Assembly: GCA_029251005.1 (NCBI GenBank)
Contig: JAQXEE010000130.1
Location: 3,328 to 67,327, forward strand
Source: Flavobacteriales bacterium
Lineage (GTDB): Bacteria > Bacteroidota > Bacteroidia > Flavobacteriales_C > GCA-002722245
DNA length: 64,000 bases
Reading direction: 5' to 3'
Below, piece by piece: positions 2,360-30,384 of this stretch. A program made the position numbers and the translations under genes. Each line of letters begins with the position of its first letter. Position 1 is the stretch's first letter. The notes under the pieces are model-generated. The model was not told the DNA's origin. It saw only the letters and a list, made by a program, of their open reading frames with translations, and made no database searches.

Positions 2360-3382
2360 ATGACTTACCATAACGATCTTATTATTAGAGCTGCGAAAGG
2401 TGAATTAGTTGAAAGGACACCAGTTTGGTTAATGCGTCAAGCAGGAAGAATTTTAAAAGAATATCGTGATGTACGTTCTAAACTTTCTGGGTTTAAGGAG
2501 TTGGTAGAAACCCCTGAATTAGCAGCCGAAGTTACTATTCAACCTGTTGATTTATTAGGTGTAGATGCGGCTATAATTTTCAGTGACATTCTAGTTGTCC
2601 CAGAAGCAATGGGCTTAACATATGAAATGATTGAACAAAAAGGACCGCATTTTCCTAAAACAATTCAAACAGAAAAAGATTTAGATGCTTTAATAATTCC
2701 TGATGCCTATGAAAGTTTGGCATATACACTAGACGCCATAAAAATCACAAAAAAAGAACTCGCAGGTAGAGTGCCTATTATTGGTTTTGCAGGAGCACCT
2801 TGGACGATTTTTTCCTATATGGTTGAAGGAGGCGGAAGTAAAACGTTTTCTAAAGCAAAAAAAATGTTGTACACGAATCCAACACTTTCTCATACTTTAT
2901 TAAGTAAAATAACACAAACAACGATCGCATATCTTAGGGCTCAAATTGTAAGTGGTGTTGAAATAGTTCAGGTATTTGATAGTTGGGCCGGAATATTATC
3001 AGAAGAGCAATACAAAGAGTTTGCGTTACCGTATATTAAGCAAATTTGTGATGCTATTAATAATGTTCCCGTAACTATTTTTGCAAAAGGAGCATATTTC
3101 GTTAGAAAAGAAATCGCTGCATTAAATTGCAGAACAATTGGATTAGATTGGAATATGGATCCAATTGAGTCAAGAAAAATTATTGGTACCGATAAAACAC
3201 TCCAAGGAAACCTTGATCCATGTGTTTTATATTCAGATTTCAAAACAATTGAAAGGAAAACAAAAGCAATGTTGGATCAATATAAAGAAGGTCCTCATAT
3301 CGCTAATCTTGGTCATGGAGTTTATCCAGATATTACACCAGATGCTGTTCGCTGTTTTGTTGAGACAGTAAAAGCATATTAA
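2360..3382 (+). CDS. hemE: uroporphyrinogen decarboxylase
   Basis: [30 protein letters not shown]... is the canonical HemE N-terminus; length 340 aa. Confidence 0.9.
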
Positions 3383-10433: not shown

Positions 10434-11975
10434 CTATTGCACCCATTTATCTTTTGTAATCATTAAAGCTTCTTGAACAGTAATTCTCGTCCCGTTATTG
10501 TAAGCAGTGACAAATGGTCCTTTAATTTTCTTGTTATTTCTTATATCTTCTCTGTGGTCTCTAGCTGCTACATATTGGTTAAAGTTACCAACTGTGTATT
10601 TATGCCAACCCTGATGCATGTTTAAGTAGATGTTTTCATTAATTTGATGACTTTTAACAAAAAAATCTGTTGTAACTTTTTTTCTTAATGCGCAAATCTG
10701 AACTCTATAGTTAACTTGTCCATTCGCAATAGCAATATTGTTATTAGTTGATGTCGTTATGTTTTGAGTTGGCTCAGAATCAGTAATCATTGGCTCCTCA
10801 ACTACCGGTTCAGCTGCAATAGGATTAGAATTAATTGGCTCCTCATCTACCGGTTTCGCTGCAATAGGATTAGCATTAATCGGTTCATTAACTACCGTTT
10901 CGGGTGCAATAGGATTTGCTTTAATAGGTTCCTCAATTACCGGTTCAGCTGCAATAGGATCAGTCTTAATTGGCTCATTAACTATTGGATTAACCGGAAT
11001 AGGATCTACAGTAATCGTTTCCTCAACTACTGGTTCAACTGCGATAGGATCAACACTAATAGGTTTATCATCTAAAGTTTCAGCTGCAACGGGATCGATT
11101 GTTGTATTTGTAATTCTAATAGTAGTCCCTTCTATTAAGAAATTCTTGGTTTCATCTCCTTCTAGATAAGACATTTTACCATCAATTATTTTGTTTCCGT
11201 CTAAATCATTCGACACATTAATCTTGTATGAAACTGTGAATTTATCTTCTGCAGGTAATGTCATCCAAAGAAATTTGACTTCATTTCCTTTCTGACTAAA
11301 AATAGCACCGTTAGCTTCAACTTCCCCAGCGACAAAACCTTCAGGTAAGCTTTCTATTATTTTACCAACCCCAGAAACATTATTTTTATCAACTTCGATT
11401 TCAACTAAGAAGGTTTCTCCAGGAACAACTTGTTTCAAATTAAATTTTCGTTTACACGTTAACTCTCTTGTTTGTGAAACCGTATTTATCGGTTTTTCTG
11501 CTGGTTCAGAAGAATTTGCTATTGGACTAGGGTCCTCATTACCTCCCGTATTTGGAGCAACTGTTATATTGGGGCTAACTAATGCACTACTTTTTCTATC
11601 ACCATCAATTACGTAAGATATCTTTCCATTGAAGTTAAAATCACCCTGTATAGTAGATTCAGTATTAACTTTAATTTGTACAGTAAACTTTGGATCTGCG
11701 GGAAGTGAAATCCAAATTAATTTTATTTTTTGATCGTAAAAAGTAAAGGTACCCCCTTCCCCGTTTAAAAGTTCAGCTGTGAAACCTTCTGGTAGAGTTA
11801 GTTGTAGTTTTGCGAAATTCGAAATATCACCTTTATCTATTTCCATTTCCATGATGTAAGACATCCCTGCCACAACTGATTCAGGAGATTTAAATGTAAT
11901 ATTTACTTCTGATTGAGTAAATAAACTCGCAATACTTAAGATAAGCACCGACGAGGCCATTAGTAAACTTTTCAT
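10434..11975 (-). CDS. secreted SPOR-domain protein with two N-terminal internal repeats and a Pro/Glu-rich 15-aa tandem repeat linker
   Basis: Signal peptide MKSLLMASSVLILSIASLF; duplicated module ...LPEGF(T/V)A(E/G)...KFTV...; C-terminal QICALRKKV...YTVGNFNQYVAARDH resembles SPOR peptidoglycan-binding domains. Confidence 0.6.
   Translation of the reverse strand: MKSLLMASSVLILSIASLFTQSEVNITFKSPESVVAGMSYIMEMEIDKGDISNFAKLQLTLPEGFTAELLNGEGGTFTFYDQKIKLIWISLPADPKFTVQIKVNTESTIQGDFNFNGKISYVIDGDRKSSALVSPNITVAPNTGGNEDPSPIANSSEPAEKPINTVSQTRELTCKRKFNLKQVVPGETFLVEIEVDKNNVSGVGKIIESLPEGFVAGEVEANGAIFSQKGNEVKFLWMTLPAEDKFTVSYKINVSNDLDGNKIIDGKMSYLEGDETKNFLIEGTTIRITNTTIDPVAAETLDDKPISVDPIAVEPVVEETITVDPIPVNPIVNEPIKTDPIAAEPVIEEPIKANPIAPETVVNEPINANPIAAKPVDEEPINSNPIAAEPVVEEPMITDSEPTQNITTSTNNNIAIANGQVNYRVQICALRKKVTTDFFVKSHQINENIYLNMHQGWHKYTVGNFNQYVAARDHREDIRNNKKIKGPFVTAYNNGTRITVQEALMITKDKWVQ
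10792..11106 (-). repeat. about 7 tandem copies of a 45-nt unit encoding NPIAAEPVVEEPIxx-type repeats inside the SPOR protein
   Basis: Plus-strand units ggctcctcaactaccggttcagctgcaataggattagaattaatt / ggctcctcatctaccggtttcgctgcaataggattagcattaatc / ... read directly. Confidence 0.7.
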
Positions 11976-13905: not shown

Positions 13906-14310
13906 TTATTCTAATTTAGGTTTTTTTCGCATACTTTTCACTTGTGATCTTTTTTGCTTGCTGTCTTTAGTTCGTTTTACCGATCCCTTTGTAGGTTTAG
14001 TTGCAATTCGTTTTTTAGGGACAATTAACCCTTTGGTGATTATGTCAAAAAATCGAGTAATTATCTTGTTTTTATTTTGAATCTGACTTTTACTGTCATC
14101 GCAAGCAATAATCAAAGTTTCCGAAGAGGTTAATCTGCTCGCTAAAGCTTTTTTTAAAAGCCTTTTTTCTCTTGTATTCAAACCTTCAGAGTTCGTAATG
14201 TTAAATGATAAAACTACCTTCGAAGACACCTTATTCACATGCTGCCCTCCAGCACCCGAACTTCGAATAGCTTTAAAGACAAACTCTTTTAAAATAAAAT
14301 CCTTATTCAT
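13906..14310 (-). CDS. arfB: alternative ribosome-rescue factor ArfB (peptidyl-tRNA hydrolase, GGQ family)
   Basis: SGAGGQHVNKVSSKV GGQ motif with a basic C-terminal tail; 134 aa. Confidence 0.75.
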   Translation of the reverse strand: MNKDFILKEFVFKAIRSSGAGGQHVNKVSSKVVLSFNITNSEGLNTREKRLLKKALASRLTSSETLIIACDDSKSQIQNKNKIITRFFDIITKGLIVPKKRIATKPTKGSVKRTKDSKQKRSQVKSMRKKPKLE

Positions 14311-14320
14311 TAAATAAAAC

Positions 14321-14623
14321 TTATTTCAACTTTTTAAAACGAAAACAATCCTTCAGAAAGTTAAGGTGTCCTAAAATTCCTTTTTTTCGAATAAATGTAC
14401 CTGAAACCTCAATAATATCATCCTTATTAATCGCTTGTAAAAAATCTTTAGGTATTCCACTGCACTCAATTGAGGCGCCAAAAGCTTTGGCTTGTAAAAT
14501 CAATACACCTTCTTTGCTAACACCACTAGTTCTACCTTTTATTTTTATTGTTTTGTGATTGTATTTTTCATTCGCTTTAACTAAGTTCTTGATAATTTGA
14601 TACTCTTTTAGTAAATCGCTCAA
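14321..14623 (-). CDS. hypothetical 100-aa protein (possibly OB-fold)
   Basis: ORF only; no motif I can name with confidence. Confidence 0.35.
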   Translation of the reverse strand: MSDLLKEYQIIKNLVKANEKYNHKTIKIKGRTSGVSKEGVLILQAKAFGASIECSGIPKDFLQAINKDDIIEVSGTFIRKKGILGHLNFLKDCFRFKKLK

Positions 14624-14771
14624 ATCAATAGTAACGTCAGCTTTTTTTAATAGCCTCTACATTTTCGGTAATTTTACTTCCTGAATTAGCAGAATTTGAA
14701 TCAGTCGAACAAGAAGCCGTGACTAATAACGTTAAGAATGGGATAATGTGTTTCATAATTGTTTTTGATAT

Positions 14772-17700
14772 TTATAATACGGAAATAAATTCACCTATAA
14801 TTTTCATGTTTTCGACATTATCTTCTGTTATCACTATGTCTTTAAAGGAGGAGTCAAATGAATTAGGTTTAAGTTTAATTAATCGATGTTCCCAAGTCTC
14901 ATCTGTAATTTCAACCTCGCTAGTGTAAGTTTTAATGGTAAATGCTGAGTTAAAGTCAGGATCTTGAATGTCAAGGTTTTCAACCAATACAATTTTTCCA
15001 TTCCTGGATCCTCCTTGATATTCTTTGAATATACAGATAGCGCCGTTTGGTATCCTTCTGTTCATTGATTCCCCTTTTATTTCGCAAGCAAAATACCCTT
15101 TTTTGTTATATTTTTCGGGAGCATCAACCATGTCAAAGGACTTATCCGTTTGAAGTTCACTAAAAGACCCGGCTGCAGCATGAAAATTATATAGCGGGAT
15201 TTGATTTCTGTTTTCAAGTTGTATTACTTTAGGAGCAATTGGTTCCTTTTTTCTTCTTTCTAACAAGTAGTTATACATATTATCTGAAACGGGACTATTC
15301 ATTTTAAATGAAACACTAACAACAGAAACTAATTTTCCTGAGTCATTTCTCATTGTCCCTTGGGATGGGCTTTTTTCTATTGGTGTAACATCACCCATGT
15401 AATAAAAATCATTTTGATCCTTATTCTTTTTAATGAATAAGGGGAGTCGAATACTTCCGTATTTACCTAAGATTGATTGGACATCCTTACTGTCAATTTT
15501 CCTATTAGACTTTGACATCCATGAAAATGTTGAGTTATTTATGAATTCATCTTCATATTTAGTTGATTCTGAAATGTCGTCTTCTTTGTGATAATTTACA
15601 AAAATTGGGCAGTTTGTTTTACTATCGTTAACCAAGTATCCACCAACATTCTGAGCAACGGGATTAGAAGTGTAGTTTAATATTCTAAAAACATCTTTTC
15701 TAGAATATTTGGAATACAGAATAAAACCATCATTCCATTTACTTTTTGAGTAGTTTGTTTTAAAGTGATTAACTGAATACAAAGTATTATCAATAAGGAA
15801 GGATTTGAATATATCTTCTTTAAGGTTTTCTTTAAATTGAGTTGTAGGCGTTATTTTGTTGTCTTTTATTGTAATCAGATTTGTTTTATGAATTTCATTA
15901 ACAGATAATAATTTTTTGTCCTGTTTTTCACGAATGAATTTGAAGTTTAAATTATCAATTGCCGATTCAATTGTATTTATTGAACTAGAGATATCGAACT
16001 TTTCGAGTATGTCTAGTTGAATTTTTAAAACTGATGTCTCTCCCGTATTGATTAGATGCTCTAGAATAATAGATTCTTCAATTCTTTTTCCATTATTGAT
16101 TTCCTTTGAAAAGTACTCTAATAGTAAAGATGGTGGCTTTGGTATTTTGATTTGATTAGATTCAACTTTATTTACAAAGTTGAAATATGATTTTGAATAT
16201 TCAACAAAAAGAAATGGATCTCTTGTTCTTGTTTCTATAAAATCCATCATCATCGGTGTTTTTCCAAGTCGATTTTTTAAATAGGCATAATCCTCTTTTA
16301 ATTCTTTTAGGAGTTTCATGTTCGCATTATCAATAGATTGAAATATCTTTTCTTTTGATATTCTGTCAAAATTGATAGTTGAAGTCCCTGGAGTTTCTCT
16401 ACTGCCTTCTGATATAAGTTTTCTTAACCTGTCTTTATTATACGAAGAATCGCCATAAAGGGCAATTGGAATCAGGTAGTTATTACTATAATTACCAATG
16501 AAATCAATGACCGTTAAATAAGATTTTTCATCTGTTTTCCGTAGGCCTCGACCTAATTGCTGAATGAAAATAATTGCCGATTCAGTTGGTCTTAATAATA
16601 TTATTTGGTTAACCTTAGGAATGTCAATTCCTTCATTAAAAATGTTAACAGTAAGGATGTAATCTATTTTTTGATTAATACTATCTGATTCTAGTTTTTG
16701 AATAGCTAAACTTCTTTCTTCGTCACTGCTGTTTCCACTTAGAGCTAATGTTTTTAGTCCTGATTTATTCAGCTTTTCAGATAGTTTTTGAGCTTCTTCA
16801 TTTCTGTTACAGAAGATTAATCCACGAGTAATTCCATTATCAGATCCATAAAAATTGGCTTTATTAATAATTTGAAGAACTCTTTCATCTGAGGTTAGGT
16901 AATTAAATTCAGTTAAATCATCTTTTTGAGAATCATTGATTGTTAGGTCTGAAACTCCGTAGTAATGAAAAGGACTAAGCATTTCCTCTTCCATTGCCTG
17001 ATTTAGTCGGATTTCATAAGCTATATTATAATCATACAATTTGAAAATATCGTTTCCATCTGTTCTCTCAGGAGTCGCGGTCATTCCTAAAAGGAACTTA
17101 GGCGTGAAATACTCAATCAGGTTTTGATAGGATTGAGCACCTGCTCTATGAGATTCATCAATTATTATATAATCAAAATGATCCTTTTTAAAGGCTTGTA
17201 AATGTGTGTTCTTAGATATTGTTTGTACAGTTGAAAAAATGAAGTTGTTATCCAACTCCCTTTGATTACCTGAGTATAAACCCATTTTTTTTGATGGACC
17301 AAATATTTTTTTAAAACTTGACATCGCTGTTTTAGCAATGTTAAGTCTGTGAACCACAAAAAGAATTTTTTTTGGAGCAAATTGCTTTACATCAAATGCT
17401 GCTAAATAGGTTTTTCCAGTCCCAGTAGCTGATATTATTAAAGCTTTGTCCTTATTGCCTTTCCTAATGTTTTTTAAGCTATCCAATGCTTCTTTTTGCA
17501 TTGGATTTGGCTCAAGCTTTAACTCGGGTTGAATAGGAACTGTCGATTTAGATGATAGCCTTTGTTTGGAGTAAACCTCCCTGTATGCTAAAATATATTC
17601 ATTAGTAACTTTAGTACTTACCTCAAAGTCTTTATTAAATTCAGAAATGACTTTATTTGTTATGTCACTTGTTTTGAGTGCTGAAACTTGTAGATTCCAT

Positions 17701-18158
17701 TCTTTATTCGAAGCTAATGCGCTTTGTGTAAGATTACTACTTCCGATTATTAAATTGTAATATTTCGAAGTTTTAAAAATATAACCTTTAGAATGTGACG
17801 AATATTTTGTCGCAATCCTTAAATCAATATTCTTAAATTGTAGTAATCGTTCAAGTGCTTCAGGTTGTGTGAAATTTAAATATTGCGAAACTAAAATTTC
17901 GCCTTTAATTCCCTTTTCTTCAAGAGTTTTAAGAGTGTTTATTATTGTGGCTACACCACCAGTTGTAACAAACGCAACCGAAATTTTAAATGATTCGCAG
18001 TTATTAAATTCTGTTAGAATAGAAGTTAAAACTTTCTTTTTAGGAGTTTTGCTATTGACAAGGAGCTTTGGTTGAAAAAGTACTTCAGAATTAATATCTT
18101 TATCAACAAAGCCTGTTAAAATACTTTTGTTAAACTCTTGAAGGAAATCATCAGTCAT
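14772..18158 (-). CDS. 1128-aa multidomain protein: PLD/HKD nuclease-like N-terminus + SF2 ResIII/DEAD-like helicase + large uncharacterised region (consistent with the DUF3427 region usually found in PLD-helicase proteins) + C-terminal LexA/UmuD-like S24 self-cleaving peptidase domain
   Basis: HSKGYIF (HxK PLD motif); helicase motif I SATGTGKT, II IIIDESHR, III MTATPER, VI QQLGRGLR; C-terminus ...IPLYNFHAAAGSF...(34 aa)...IKGESM...NGKIVLV...FTIKTY resembles the LexA cleavage strand VAAGEP, GDSM Ser nucleophile and catalytic Lys. Confidence 0.85.
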   Translation of the reverse strand: MTDDFLQEFNKSILTGFVDKDINSEVLFQPKLLVNSKTPKKKVLTSILTEFNNCESFKISVAFVTTGGVATIINTLKTLEEKGIKGEILVSQYLNFTQPEALERLLQFKNIDLRIATKYSSHSKGYIFKTSKYYNLIIGSSNLTQSALASNKEWNLQVSALKTSDITNKVISEFNKDFEVSTKVTNEYILAYREVYSKQRLSSKSTVPIQPELKLEPNPMQKEALDSLKNIRKGNKDKALIISATGTGKTYLAAFDVKQFAPKKILFVVHRLNIAKTAMSSFKKIFGPSKKMGLYSGNQRELDNNFIFSTVQTISKNTHLQAFKKDHFDYIIIDESHRAGAQSYQNLIEYFTPKFLLGMTATPERTDGNDIFKLYDYNIAYEIRLNQAMEEEMLSPFHYYGVSDLTINDSQKDDLTEFNYLTSDERVLQIINKANFYGSDNGITRGLIFCNRNEEAQKLSEKLNKSGLKTLALSGNSSDEERSLAIQKLESDSINQKIDYILTVNIFNEGIDIPKVNQIILLRPTESAIIFIQQLGRGLRKTDEKSYLTVIDFIGNYSNNYLIPIALYGDSSYNKDRLRKLISEGSRETPGTSTINFDRISKEKIFQSIDNANMKLLKELKEDYAYLKNRLGKTPMMMDFIETRTRDPFLFVEYSKSYFNFVNKVESNQIKIPKPPSLLLEYFSKEINNGKRIEESIILEHLINTGETSVLKIQLDILEKFDISSSINTIESAIDNLNFKFIREKQDKKLLSVNEIHKTNLITIKDNKITPTTQFKENLKEDIFKSFLIDNTLYSVNHFKTNYSKSKWNDGFILYSKYSRKDVFRILNYTSNPVAQNVGGYLVNDSKTNCPIFVNYHKEDDISESTKYEDEFINNSTFSWMSKSNRKIDSKDVQSILGKYGSIRLPLFIKKNKDQNDFYYMGDVTPIEKSPSQGTMRNDSGKLVSVVSVSFKMNSPVSDNMYNYLLERRKKEPIAPKVIQLENRNQIPLYNFHAAAGSFSELQTDKSFDMVDAPEKYNKKGYFACEIKGESMNRRIPNGAICIFKEYQGGSRNGKIVLVENLDIQDPDFNSAFTIKTYTSEVEITDETWEHRLIKLKPNSFDSSFKDIVITEDNVENMKIIGEFISVL

Positions 18159-18546
18159 TACTAATTAGTTTATGTACAATTGGTAAATCTGCTACTGCCC
18201 AATCTAGAGCTGTAAGTTCTTCTTTTGAAAGCCATTTTTGATCAATATGCTCATTCAAAGTAAGTTTTCTACTTTCAACTTTTACGATGAAACTATGCAT
18301 CGTTAATTCAAAGTCAGGGTACTGGTGATTAACAGTTAAGTACAAATCTCCTACTTTAACATTAATATCTAATTCCTCTACTAATTCCCGCTGTAAAGCT
18401 TCTTTTTGAGTTTCTCCTGCTTCAATTTTTCCTCCAGGAAATTCAAATTTCTTAGAAATATATGGTAGTTTACTTTCTGCTCTTTGAACACAAAGTATTT
18501 TGTTCTCGTTTATTAATATAGCCGCAACAACTTCTATTTTTTTCAT
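18151..18546 (-). CDS. MutT-like NUDIX hydrolase (8-oxo-dGTP diphosphatase family), translationally coupled to the downstream PLD-helicase-S24 gene
   Basis: Nudix box GGKIEAGETQKEALQRELVEELDI; start placed at MKKIEVVAAIL; its stop codon overlaps the next gene's ATG (ATGACTGA). Confidence 0.75.
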   Translation of the reverse strand: MKKIEVVAAILINENKILCVQRAESKLPYISKKFEFPGGKIEAGETQKEALQRELVEELDINVKVGDLYLTVNHQYPDFELTMHSFIVKVESRKLTLNEHIDQKWLSKEELTALDWAVADLPIVHKLISND

Positions 18547-18604
18547 GAAGTTTTTTATCAAAGGATGAAGAAAAATCAAAAAGACGAATTAAATATAATA
18601 AAAA

Positions 18605-20047
18605 TCAAGTCCCACAAAAAGTTTGATAACCATTTTCGGACGAAGGAGGTTGTTGGTATTTATCTGAAGTATAATGTTCGAAAGGCGATTTTAGTTTAGT
18701 AAGTAACTTGTTAAAAGGAATCATGTTTTCGTTTTCGCTAGCTTGTGTTAGCGCTTCTTCAACTAAATGATTTCTTGGAATTATGGAAGGATTGTAATCT
18801 TCGAGGAGGTTTTCGTAATTATCTACCGAACTTACTCTTTTTAGCCATTTGGATTTCCAAGTCTGAAAATTGGAATGGTTAAAAATGGGGTCTTTATGTA
18901 AATGAGGATCAACTAATCCACGAAAAGTGTTGGTGAAATCAGGTTTAGCGGTTTCCATCCATGCGAAGAGTTCGTTTAACAAATCTTCATCTCCATCTTC
19001 TTCTTTTATAATCCCCAATTTAGCAAGATGATTTATTTTCCAAATGGTTTGAAAGTTTTTATCAAATTGATTAAATTCTTTTTGTGCGAGTTCCAACGAT
19101 TTTTTTTCATCGGAATGAATGAGTGGTAACATCGTTTCGGCTAATCGCATTAAATTCCACTTTGCAATTTTGGATTGATTGCTATATGCATAACGTCCTT
19201 GTTCATCGATAGAACTATAGACAGTGCCTGGATTAAAATGATTCATGAAAGCGCATGGACCATAATCGATTGTTTCACCTGCAATACTCATGTTGTCGGT
19301 ATTCATCACACCGTGAATAAATCCAACTTTCAACCAATCGTTTACCAATTTTATTTGTGATTGGATCACTTCCTGTAAAAAACTCAATGCAGGATTTTCG
19401 GTGTCGAATACATCAGGGTAATGCCTATTAGCAGTATAGTTAAATAATGTTTCAACAAAAACGGGATTTCCCATTCTTACTGCTAGTTCAAAAGTTCCCA
19501 CTCGAATATGACTTTCAGCAACTCGGGTAAGAACGCCCGTTTGATGAACAGTTTGCCGGTAAACAGGATCGTCACTTCTAACAATAGCTAAACTTCTTGT
19601 TGTGCTGATGTTTAATCCTGCCATTGCTTCGCTAATTAAATATTCACGCAACATGGAGTATAGAGTCGATCTTCCATCCCCTCTTCGGGAGTAAGGCGTT
19701 TGTCCGCTCCCTTTAAGTTGTATGTCAAAACGCTCTTCATACGGGGTTATTATTTCTCCAATTAATATTGCTCTACCGTCACCCAGTACGTTAAAATGTC
19801 CGAATTGATGACCGCCATATGCTTGCGCAATAGAGGTGGTAGATTTCGGTACATGATTTCCGGCTAAAACATCTGTCAAGTATGCTTTGTCTTTTGCTAG
19901 CTCGGTTAGCCCTAATTGTTTTCCTAAACTATTGTTGTAAAGTAATAATTTAGGATTAGATATTGCTGTTGGACTCGTTTCTGAAAAAAACACAGAAGGA
20001 AGAGAAAGGTAAGAATTGTCGAATTTCCAGGTTGAATCTTGTGCCAT
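18605..20047 (-). CDS. selO: protein adenylyltransferase SelO (YdiU/UPF0061)
   Basis: 480 aa; ...HGVMNTDNMSIAGETIDYGPCAF... conserved SelO active-site region. Confidence 0.85.
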   Translation of the reverse strand: MAQDSTWKFDNSYLSLPSVFFSETSPTAISNPKLLLYNNSLGKQLGLTELAKDKAYLTDVLAGNHVPKSTTSIAQAYGGHQFGHFNVLGDGRAILIGEIITPYEERFDIQLKGSGQTPYSRRGDGRSTLYSMLREYLISEAMAGLNISTTRSLAIVRSDDPVYRQTVHQTGVLTRVAESHIRVGTFELAVRMGNPVFVETLFNYTANRHYPDVFDTENPALSFLQEVIQSQIKLVNDWLKVGFIHGVMNTDNMSIAGETIDYGPCAFMNHFNPGTVYSSIDEQGRYAYSNQSKIAKWNLMRLAETMLPLIHSDEKKSLELAQKEFNQFDKNFQTIWKINHLAKLGIIKEEDGDEDLLNELFAWMETAKPDFTNTFRGLVDPHLHKDPIFNHSNFQTWKSKWLKRVSSVDNYENLLEDYNPSIIPRNHLVEEALTQASENENMIPFNKLLTKLKSPFEHYTSDKYQQPPSSENGYQTFCGT

Positions 20048-20299
20048 AATTGAAAGATAGAATTAAGGTTCGGTTTTCGAAATGAATACTTATTGAAATT
20101 GTCTTTTAGGGGATAGACGGTTTTGGTAGTTAGTTACGCCTAGATGACCTTTATTTAATGATGTAAAGGAGGTTAGCGCTATTTTTTTTAAAAAAGCAAT
20201 TAAATGTAAATTAGGTACGTCTTTAAATTGTTATTTTCTCGTTAACAACTCTTCTAGTTACTATATCGTGTAAGCCTATTTTATTTATAAATTTGCATC

Positions 20300-21370
20300 A
20301 TGTTTTTAGTACGTGTACTCTTATTGCCTTTTTCGTTTCTATACGGATTGATAACATCCGTAAGGAATGTTCTTTTTAATTCAGGCGTGTTAAAATCGCG
20401 TGAATTTCAAACGAAATCAATATCTGTAGGAAATATTACCGTTGGTGGAACTGGGAAATCTCCTCATATAGAATACTTAATCAGGCTTTTAAGAGCAGAT
20501 AAAAAATTAGCTACATTAAGTAGGGGATATTTACGAAAGACAAAAGGTTATTTAGTTGCCGATGAGAAATCGAGTTATAAGGATTTAGGAGATGAGCCGA
20601 TGCAGTTTCATTCCAAATTCAAAGACGTAACCGTTGTGGTTGATGAAGATCGTCGGAATGGGATGGAGAAAATCGAACAAGAAATTAATCCTGATATTAT
20701 TTTATTGGATGATTGTTACCAGCATCGTTGGGTTAAACCTCAATTGAATATTTTATTAATTGATTATTCAACGGTTGGGTCAAAGCAATTTATGTTGCCA
20801 TCTGGAGAGTTAAGAGAATGGAAATCGGGTGTTAAAAGAGCTGATGCAATTGTTGTGACTAAATCTCCAGAGTTACATTCACCAATTGAACATCGTAGGA
20901 TTAAGGAATTGATAAAGCCCTTAAGGTCACAAAAAACGTTTTTTAGCTACATCGATTACAAATCGATTACTCCTTTTAACGAATGTGCAAACTTACTTTG
21001 TAATGAAGGTGTTATGAAACTAGAAAATTTTAAAACAGTTGTTTTTGCAGGAATAGCGAAGATTACACCTTTGGTGGATTATTTAAAGCAAACAGCCAAA
21101 GAGGTTATTGTAACTGAATTTAGTGACCATCACAATTTTGAACCTGTTGATATTGTAAGATTAACGAACACTTTTAAAGCGATTATTTCGAAAGACAAAA
21201 TTTTAATTACAACAGAGAAAGATGCAACGCGATTAAAGGATTCAAGACTTTTTCCGCTTTTGGAGCAATTTCCTGTTTTTTATTTACCCATAGAAGTTAA
21301 ATTTCATAAAGGTCTTGAAGATGAAGATACTTTTGATGAAATGATTAATAGTTATGTTCAAGCAAATTAA
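20300..21370 (+). CDS. lpxK: tetraacyldisaccharide 4'-kinase
   Basis: GNITVGGTGKSP P-loop and the overall LpxK layout. Confidence 0.8.
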   Translation: MFLVRVLLLPFSFLYGLITSVRNVLFNSGVLKSREFQTKSISVGNITVGGTGKSPHIEYLIRLLRADKKLATLSRGYLRKTKGYLVADEKSSYKDLGDEPMQFHSKFKDVTVVVDEDRRNGMEKIEQEINPDIILLDDCYQHRWVKPQLNILLIDYSTVGSKQFMLPSGELREWKSGVKRADAIVVTKSPELHSPIEHRRIKELIKPLRSQKTFFSYIDYKSITPFNECANLLCNEGVMKLENFKTVVFAGIAKITPLVDYLKQTAKEVIVTEFSDHHNFEPVDIVRLTNTFKAIISKDKILITTEKDATRLKDSRLFPLLEQFPVFYLPIEVKFHKGLEDEDTFDEMINSYVQAN

Positions 21371-30300: not shown

Positions 30301-30372
30301 GGCCCGTTCGTCTAGGGGTTAGGACGCCAGGTTTTCATCCTGGTAACAGGGGTTCGATTCCCCTACGGGCTA
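30301..30372 (+). tRNA. tRNA-Glu (anticodon TTC)
   Basis: Cloverleaf folded by hand: acceptor GGCCCGT/ACGGGCT, anticodon stem GCCAGG/CCTGG with loop TTTTCAT, T-arm AGGGGTTCGATTCCCCT; no encoded CCA. Confidence 0.9.
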
Positions 30373-30384
30373 CTTGGACAATTA

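Follow-up and report, generated by a model that had tools for sequence, protein, structure and literature searches.

A two-gene cassette on the minus strand was investigated in a window of 64,000 nt (the whole stretch of DNA analysed; positions 3,328 to 67,327 of contig JAQXEE010000130.1, assembly GCA_029251005.1) from an uncultured Flavobacteriales-like bacterium. The first gene encodes a NUDIX pyrophosphohydrolase. The second encodes a full-length SauUSI-family Type IV modification-dependent restriction enzyme, with colinear PLD nuclease, SF2 translocase, coupler and SRA-like target-recognition domain, which is extended at its C terminus by a variable linker and a LexA/UmuD-like domain of the S24 family (Table 1). 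SauUSI-type enzymes and their pairing with a NUDIX gene are already known; what appears to be new is the S24 appendage, both on this enzyme and on other restriction enzymes.

Table 1. Features of the NUDIX and SauUSI-S24 cassette, in window positions (aa, amino acids; AF2, AlphaFold2; dN/dS, ratio of nonsynonymous to synonymous substitution rates).
Feature	Extent in protein	Window positions	Strand	Basis
NUDIX (MutT/NudG-like) pyrophosphohydrolase gene, from ATG at 18546	131 aa	18151..18546	(-)	Pfam, PADLOC, 3GWY
8-nt overlap ATGACTGA of the NUDIX stop codon with the enzyme start codon		18151..18158	(-)	read from sequence
SauUSI-type Type IV restriction enzyme gene with C-terminal S24 domain	1128 aa	14772..18158	(-)	open reading frame list; PADLOC mREase_IV; PDB 7CLG
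PLD-family nuclease domain, HxK motif HSKGYIF	aa 1-195	17574..18158	(-)	Pfam PLDc_2; SauUSI alignment around H119/K121
SF2 helicase-like ATPase, motifs GTGKT, DESH, TATPER, QQLGRGLR	aa 214-560	16479..17519	(-)	Pfam ResIII and Helicase_C; 7CLG alignment
Alpha-helical coupler	aa 561-805	15744..16478	(-)	aligned to SauUSI residues 618-805; takes in the N-terminal part of DUF3427
Target-recognition domain (TRD)	aa 806-965	15264..15743	(-)	Pfam DUF3427 682-965; aligned to SauUSI TRD 806-953
Lys-rich variable linker, TRD to S24	aa 966-986	15201..15263	(-)	17% mean identity, 24 homologs; column variability
LexA/UmuD-like S24 self-cleaving peptidase domain	aa 987-1128	14775..15200	(-)	Pfam, AF2 and Foldseek, dN/dS
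Predicted scissile bond in HAAAG/SF	Ala996/Gly997	15168..15173	(-)	translation; homolog alignments
Predicted catalytic Ser (GESM), LexA S119 equivalent	Ser1031	15066..15068	(-)	alignments, LexA comparison
Predicted general base Lys (FTIKTY), LexA K156 equivalent	Lys1076	14931..14933	(-)	alignments

The 1128-aa translation holds the motifs HSKGYIF, SATGTGKT, IIIDESHR, MTATPER, QQLGRGLR, HAAAGSF, GESM and FTIKTY. Pfam placed PLDc_2 at residues 67-177 (37.9 bits), ResIII at 214-365 (145 bits), Helicase_C at 442-540 (54.8 bits), DUF3427 at 682-965 (256.8 bits) and Peptidase_S24 (PF00717) at 988-1123 (28.3 bits against a cut-off of 23.3, E = 1.6e-6). A first-pass annotation, made from the letters of the window, had described this four-part layout and predicted the last two matches, and both were obtained. 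The helicase motifs are invariant across 26 homologs, and HSKGYIF stands in line with the catalytic HxK motif of SauUSI (H119/K121). The same annotation had presented the protein as an undescribed nuclease-helicase system. Residues 5-965, however, cover positions 4-951 of the 953 in the PADLOC profile for Type IV methyl-directed enzymes (mREase_IV, 769 bits), and the crystal structure of SauUSI (7CLG; 953 aa, residues 4-951) aligns with them end to end (E = 3.6e-221). The stretch of about 400 residues between helicase and S24 domain is the coupler and TRD of SauUSI, and the enzyme is therefore of a known kind and not a new nuclease-helicase. We regard the identity of the enzyme body and its pairing with the NUDIX gene as practically certain.

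SauUSI reads 5-methyl- and 5-hydroxymethylcytosine through its SRA-like C-terminal domain, translocates, and shreds DNA with its PLD nuclease (PMC7913695, PMC3141236, bioRxiv 10.1101/2025.10.16.682607). It is an obligate dimer, formed via the PLD domains without any S24 domain, and the apo crystal was read as an inactive form, one that must rearrange extensively (PMC7913695). The biochemistry and domain boundaries used here were taken from PMC7913695 and PMC3141236. By homology, the window enzyme would likewise recognise DNA with 5-methyl- or 5-hydroxymethylcytosine, translocate with ATP and shred the DNA. The two systems share the order of PLD nuclease, SF2 ATPase, coupler and SRA-like TRD (DUF3427), the lack of a cognate methyltransferase and a linked upstream NUDIX gene. 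They differ in host, SauUSI coming from a Firmicute, in the source of what is known of specificity, which for the window enzyme is homology, and in the approximately 163 extra C-terminal residues of the window enzyme (variable linker and S24).

No methyltransferase was found in the cassette, and none recurred in the flanks in a neighbour survey of 80 loci, which agrees with the first-pass annotation. A Type III Res subunit was ruled out, since no Mod methyltransferase is adjacent; one related locus (L091), by contrast, has a true pair of Mod and Res-S24. Three further readings, a repair motor induced by the SOS response, a classical Type III restriction-modification system and abortive infection, the first and last of them put forward at first, were dropped for Type IV restriction on account of the end-to-end homology to SauUSI. 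A full-length AlphaFold2 model was unusable (mean predicted local distance difference test, pLDDT, 51.5; predicted template modelling score, pTM, 0.28), built as it was on a shallow alignment of 26 sequences mostly ~62-65% identical to the query.

The mechanically called open reading frame of the NUDIX gene runs to a TTG at 18579, the start first assigned to it. The ATG at 18546 is most likely the true start, because homologous open reading frames are 396 nt long in most related loci and matches to the profiles start only at residue 11-12. The identity of the gene stood (Pfam NUDIX, 62 bits), and its Nudix box, GGKIEAGETQKEALQRELVEELDI, retains the catalytic E, RE and EE. Over its full length it matches PADLOC PDC-S07, a listed defence candidate (1.1e-47). 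With NCBIfam TIGR00586 (mutT) it scored 92.8 bits, just under the cut-off of 97.9, and as NudG-like 89.8 bits, scores that do not separate the two; its distance from E. coli MutT equals that from E. coli NudG, a Nudix pyrophosphatase for 5-substituted (d)CTP. Among solved structures, 3GWY comes closest (Q5LBB1 of Bacteroides fragilis; E = 2.1e-41, full length), and both Nudix boxes end in D instead of G. The 3GWY protein hydrolyses 5-Me-dCTP, 5-hydroxymethyl-dCTP and 5-Me-CTP with a kcat/Km of ~5e6 M-1 s-1, and canonical nucleoside triphosphates at much lower efficiency (PMC5158307). Homology to Q5LBB1 suggests that 5-substituted dCTP (5-methyl- and 5-hydroxymethyl-dCTP) is probably the substrate class here as well. 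Two roles had been proposed at first, a sanitiser of nucleotides and a degrader of a nucleotide signal; the 3GWY homology and its substrates make a sanitiser of 5-substituted dCTP the more likely and a signal degrader the less likely. By clearing 5-methyl- and 5-hydroxymethyl-dCTP, the NUDIX enzyme would keep the bases targeted by its partner out of the host chromosome, and it could perhaps also starve phages that build their DNA from these nucleotides.

The coupling of the two genes, first read from their 8-nt overlap, proved to be general. A NUDIX gene lies directly upstream in 66 of the 66 S24-bearing loci that have enough upstream DNA, with the exact 8-nt overlap in 52 of the 66. It is also found upstream of four of the five S24-less SauUSI homologs examined (on a Lactiplantibacillus plasmid, a Latilactobacillus replicon, and plasmids of the Bacteroidota Chondrinema and Hymenobacter), and no S24 domain occurs within 4 kb of these four. 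A conserved MutT/NUDIX gene beside sauUSI, in at least 60 linked pairs, was described by Xu et al. 2011, who left its function open (PMC3141236); in Staphylococcus aureus it is SAUSA300_2432. The overlapping upstream NUDIX gene is thus a conserved partner of the SauUSI family, with or without S24. A specific tie to S24 was considered and rejected on the strength of the four S24-less pairs, which places the NUDIX gene outside any RecA*-gating device (RecA*, RecA filaments on single-stranded DNA).

The S24-bearing cassette was confirmed in at least 160 stretches of a collection with one genome per species (185,579 species), a lower bound as the scan used just two peptide patterns. The 80 loci returned were mainly from Flavobacteriales, Chitinophagales/Saprospiraceae, Cytophagales, Sphingobacteriales and Balneola, and the enzyme gained its linker and S24 domain in a subclade mainly of Bacteroidota. 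Two loci carry other labels, 'Rhizobium sp. Q54' (L042) and 'uncultured Bifidobacterium sp.' (L068), both from metagenome-assembled genomes; every other match is from Bacteroidota or Balneola. These two contigs are likely mis-binned rather than real occurrences in those genera.

The C-terminal domain was then compared with known S24 proteins. An AlphaFold2 model of the domain (pLDDT 77, pTM 0.74) was searched against the PDB with Foldseek, and the top 30 matches were all LexA, lambda CI or UmuD (probability 0.99-1.0), the best being a cleavable LexA. Gly997 and Ser1031 are 34 residues apart, the same as G85 and S119 of E. coli LexA, so that the spacing noted in the first-pass annotation was confirmed. 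Among 121 sequences (the query and 120 homologs of ≥60% identity), A996, S1031 and K1076 are present in 121/121 and G997 in 116/121. An exhaustive S24 profile search of 1.84 billion cluster representatives gave 944 matches at E ≤ 1e-10, from which 119 listed representatives cover the full S24 domain at a pairwise identity of ≤50%. The Ser and the Lys are present in all 119 of these divergent representatives, which have unrelated partner proteins, and the Gly-x-Ser-Met motif is invariant. Ala precedes the scissile bond in 105 and Cys in the other 14; the Gly after it is kept in 111/119. Ala-Gly is the cleavage site of LexA and CI, and Cys-Gly that of UmuD. With E-values down to 1e-221 for the enzyme and residues invariant across these representatives, the features described lie far beyond chance. 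Profile match, fold search and conservation among orthologues all uphold the first description of a LexA/UmuD-type S24 domain with an intact site and a Ser/Lys dyad.

Purifying selection acts on the S24 domain: when the window is compared with L001, its closest relative (88% nucleotide identity), dN/dS is 0.10 for S24 and 0.07-0.11 for the remaining domains. In a set of 24 homologs, identity within S24 is 64%, which equals that of the PLD nuclease and falls in the 54-70% range of the domains; the 21-residue linker reaches only 17%. Four of the six positions in LexA that form the pocket for RecA F203 could be mapped on S24, and all four are hydrophobic (F1023, L1058, F/Y1073 and A/C/V1025), a likeness in chemical character only. 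No helix-turn-helix (HTH) domain was detected by Pfam in the 1128-aa protein, which appears to carry the LexA switch while being no repressor. Fold, Ser-Lys dyad, an Ala/Cys-Gly bond 34 residues before the Ser and the order of effector first and S24 last are as in LexA and CI. The S24 domain of the window differs from LexA, CI and UmuD in being joined to a 965-residue restriction enzyme rather than to an HTH DNA-binding domain. Direct comparison with LexA also places an 8-residue insertion between Ser and Lys, and similarity to solved LexA proteins is low, cleavage being predicted from sequence. Taken together, the domain seems to be a genuine LexA-type module that is probably catalytic, and we consider self-cleavage likely.

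Many restriction and defence nucleases bear a domain of this S24 clade. A census of partners by Pfam and PADLOC scans of 113 S24-clade representatives found DUF2075/Schlafen-type helicases in 28, often with an N-terminal GIY-YIG nuclease (matched in 6), and ResIII helicases, including Type III Res, in 15. DUF3427, the SauUSI type, accounts for 8, specificity domains of Type ISP/IIG enzymes (Type_ISP_C) for 6, C-terminal domains of Type I HsdR (T1RH-like_C) for 4, and XhoI, Mrr_cat and EcoEI_R_C for one each. Further partners are a NERD-UvrD protein (P0382) and a DruE-like fragment (P0304), and just 2/113 have an HTH. In deposited genomes, complete operons of S24-HsdR, HsdM and HsdS (L090:7001-12663) and of Mod methyltransferase and Res-S24 (L091:5117-10234) place the S24 domain on the restriction subunit. 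Its position is C-terminal in 114/119 representatives; in the HsdR of L090 it follows roughly the first 45 residues and appears inserted in the N-terminal nuclease region rather than appended. Across the clade, the body left by cleavage would end in AAA (57), VAA (25), IAA (13) or AAC (13). One DUF2075-S24 fusion forms a cluster of 11 members from several sources; nine are complete, with 807 aa.

In four loci, a gene for a GIY-YIG-DUF2075/Schlafen helicase-S24 protein (708-730 aa) lies 0.6-3.2 kb upstream of the NUDIX and SauUSI-S24 genes (L049:2633-4822, L055:3913-6105, L074:1648-3837 and L042:3-2129, the last truncated by the contig end and without a GIY-YIG match). S24-bearing defence genes therefore cluster. 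No paper on an S24 domain fused to SauUSI or to another restriction enzyme was found in the literature searched, from which subscription journals were largely absent, so that an earlier mention is possible; within those bounds the fusion is undescribed, as first proposed. The domains of the S24 enzymes are already labelled by automated annotation. One clade member of 287 aa (P0269) apparently has two tandem S24 stretches, both matched by Pfam. A nucleotide pyrophosphatase gene followed by a DUF2075 helicase gene also recurs beside modification-dependent restriction genes (L081:6892-8972, L089:6001-12156): a MazG-like gene and a DUF2075 helicase follow a SauUSI homolog on a L. plantarum plasmid (L081), and a Vibrio has a NUDIX gene, a DUF2075 helicase and McrBC next to a Type I system (L089).

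Our best explanation of the whole, to which we give a probability of about 0.5, is a SauUSI-type cassette whose S24 domain serves as an autoimmunity fuse that shuts the enzyme off. The domain would cut its own chain at Ala996/Gly997, the trigger most likely being RecA filaments on single-stranded DNA formed at a broken or gapped chromosome. Cleavage would part S24 from an enzyme of about 997 residues, leaving an -AAA-COOH end, and the freed enzyme would then be inactivated or degraded. This would amount to built-in restriction alleviation, in which a damage signal removes the enzyme attacking the host chromosome. With a Type IV enzyme, the accident could begin when the host gains a cytosine methyltransferase, incorporates modified dCTP or undergoes recombinational repair; breaks would follow, RecA* would form, and the nuclease would be removed. 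The authors of the SauUSI work note the risk from acquiring a cytosine methyltransferase. One enzyme would then have two safety devices, the NUDIX protein for prevention and the S24 domain as the fuse.

Two steps of this scheme were weighed separately. If the domain cleaves, RecA* seems a probable trigger: most characterised S24 self-cleaving proteins depend on RecA* (PMC7101444). Given cleavage, we also judge loss of activity likelier than activation. Shut-off fits better than an activation lock because the S24 clade is found on R subunits that already tell self from non-self and need to act at once, and proteolytic down-regulation after damage is an established need of Type I and III restriction-modification systems. 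LexA-family cleavage exposes terminal degrons for ClpXP and Lon (PMC10584840, PMC7101444). In restriction alleviation of EcoKI, ClpXP degrades HsdR under DNA-damage stress, and motor activity alone is toxic (PMC4231737, PMC11109961). The scheme for the window enzyme shares with EcoKI the post-translational, proteolytic removal of a nuclease/motor subunit once the host chromosome is endangered. It differs in that the switch would be built in and would read RecA*; the degron of EcoKI is unidentified, recognition is by translocation state and there is no self-cleaving domain (PMC4231737). EcoKI alleviation also follows acquisition of a new system. The -AAA end of the enzyme resembles a -VAA end which, reportedly from the work of Neher et al. 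in 2003, marks the cleaved N-terminal fragment of LexA for ClpXP.

Several points weigh against this interpretation. Cleavage, trigger and consequence are all inferred for the S24-fused restriction enzymes. A Type IV enzyme spares unmodified self DNA, which makes the rationale for alleviation weaker than for Types I and III. Because S24 itself calls for such a sequence in its substrate, the conservation of the -AAA end is not independent evidence of a degron. In the HsdR fusion, cleavage would remove only ~64 residues, and consequences may differ by architecture. The S24 profile gave a weak match to LexA among PDB sequences (E = 0.077), and hhalign with a single LexA sequence returned a probability of 5%, for which reason the domain was assigned to the LexA family on the basis of Pfam, fold search and conserved motifs. 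The LexA-like protein IrvR cleaves without RecA (PMC7101444). For the NUDIX gene, an S24-less Fusobacterium homolog (L084) has no NUDIX gene nearby. The biochemically characterised NUDIX protein of B. fragilis (Q5LBB1) comes from a stand-alone gene with no SauUSI neighbour, unlike the cassette gene, whose substrates are assigned by homology to it, and Q5LBB1 was rejected as a cassette member on that ground.

The alternative that survives best, which we nevertheless consider unlikely, reverses the sign of the switch. S24 would lock the nuclease-helicase, and RecA* arising from phage replication, conjugative entry of single-stranded DNA or DNA damage would free an active effector through self-cleavage. 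The intact cleavage apparatus suits this alternative, and UmuD is a precedent for activation through S24 cleavage. An added lock is conceivable on an enzyme whose apo form is read as inactive and in need of a large conformational change, and the clustering of S24-tagged enzymes in four loci fits co-regulation by one signal in either direction. However, canonical SauUSI and the classical Type I and III enzymes are constitutive first-line defences that already discriminate self from non-self, yet their R subunits carry this S24 clade in complete restriction-modification operons; incoming DNA would be restricted later if the enzyme had to wait for RecA*. The domains run effector, linker, site and S24 (C-terminal in most representatives, as counted above) as they do in LexA and CI, proteins that cleavage inactivates and whose degrons it exposes.

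Rather unlikely, too, is cleavage that proceeds independently of RecA, whether constitutively or in response to pH, DNA binding or stalled translocation, and that would set the half-life of the enzyme as in IrvR. That protein has an Ala-Gly site, a Ser/Lys dyad and a C-degron, and its cleavage is essential (PMC7101444). Nothing in the sequence of the window domain proves RecA* binding, given that the pocket residues are alike in character only. Against this stand the RecA dependence of most characterised S24 self-cleavers, the conserved hydrophobic equivalents of the RecA F203 pocket, and the fact that a damage-linked trigger is the clearest common reason for placing one module on many nucleases. 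An S24 domain that never cleaves and serves as a module for dimerisation or for docking on RecA filaments is improbable: SauUSI works as an obligate dimer and LexA-type C-terminal domains dimerise, but SauUSI already dimerises via its PLD domains without S24, and a purely structural role would hardly account for an invariant Ser, Lys and Gly-x-Ser-Met, a conserved (Ala/Cys)-Gly, a dN/dS of 0.10 and a variable linker.

The autoimmunity fuse may extend beyond the SauUSI family, and we offer this as a tentative generalisation. S24 would then act as a general fuse module, transferable among the nucleases of restriction and defence systems (Type I HsdR, Type II XhoI, ISP/IIG, III Res, IV SauUSI and Mrr, and GIY-YIG/DUF2075 enzymes). 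A break in the host chromosome, made by the enzyme or otherwise, would lead to RecA*, self-cleavage, an -AAA or -VAA degron and removal of the nuclease. Only for Type I systems such as EcoKI is the mechanism known by which cells escape their own restriction enzymes after damage or once a new methyltransferase arrives. No alleviation of Type IV enzymes has been described to our knowledge. The field has asked why it is unseen outside Type I (PMC4231737). If the reading is true, nucleases of Types I, II, ISP, III and IV that bear a LexA-type module would give a direct and easily testable answer, with alleviation hard-wired into the enzyme beyond the Type I/ClpXP case. The main interest lies in this pattern across classes and in a mechanism that a few point mutants could decide. 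For the NUDIX gene of the SauUSI family, whose role has been open since 2011, the analysis offers a concrete function in keeping the host from writing the enzyme's target into its own DNA. SauUSI-type barriers also hinder the genetic manipulation of many bacteria, and a damage-triggered off-switch could lower such a barrier temporarily.

The genes flanking the cassette vary between genomes. Apart from the NUDIX gene, no neighbour was found in more than 7 of the 80 loci, so that no third conserved gene emerged. Four copies of the cassette are decaying: one with multiple frameshifts (L012), one with a single frameshift (L029), one with frameshifts in both the NUDIX gene and the enzyme (L055), and one that keeps the last ~196 residues (L002). 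The varying flanks and decaying copies mark the cassette as an accessory, mobile defence gene and not a core gene, a distinction for which the first-pass annotation had suggested a survey of neighbourhoods. Short stand-alone 'S24 family peptidase' entries in databases (e.g., P0129) come from decayed remnants of this kind. The cassette was not found on viral contigs, where S24 relatives are distant (24-38% identity).

In the window, the cassette lies among housekeeping genes and shows no composition anomaly. The gene upstream of the NUDIX gene is SelO (Pfam, 360 bits), as first noted. SelO and the ArfB-like, NIF3, LpxK and PNP neighbours are common to the window and its closest relative L001 only, and SelO was rejected as a part of the system for that reason. 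A promoter and terminator scan of positions 14200-20400 was uninformative, with 27 promoter-like sites compared with 26 expected by chance. Downstream of the enzyme, positions 14321-14756 (-) hold a small lipoprotein-like gene with a signal peptide and an LVTASC lipobox, the C-terminal part of which has a weak, sub-threshold Pfam match to tRNA_anti-like (OB-fold). It is split by a frameshift near 14640-14650, a 1-nt poly-A insertion relative to the intact 144-aa reading frame of L001, and is either a pseudogene or the product of a homopolymer sequencing error. Next to it, positions 13906-14310 (-) encode a 134-aa RF-1-domain protein (Pfam), an ArfB-like peptidyl-tRNA hydrolase shared with L001 only and unrelated to the cassette. 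Further along, a 513-aa protein (10434-11975, -) has long degenerate repeats of roughly P-I-A-x-E-P-V-x-E-E, and a 103-aa open reading frame opposite the repeats (10764-11075, +) looks like a by-product of them rather than a gene. The sole match to Rfam or ARAGORN in the window was a tRNA-Glu with anticodon TTC (30301-30373, +).

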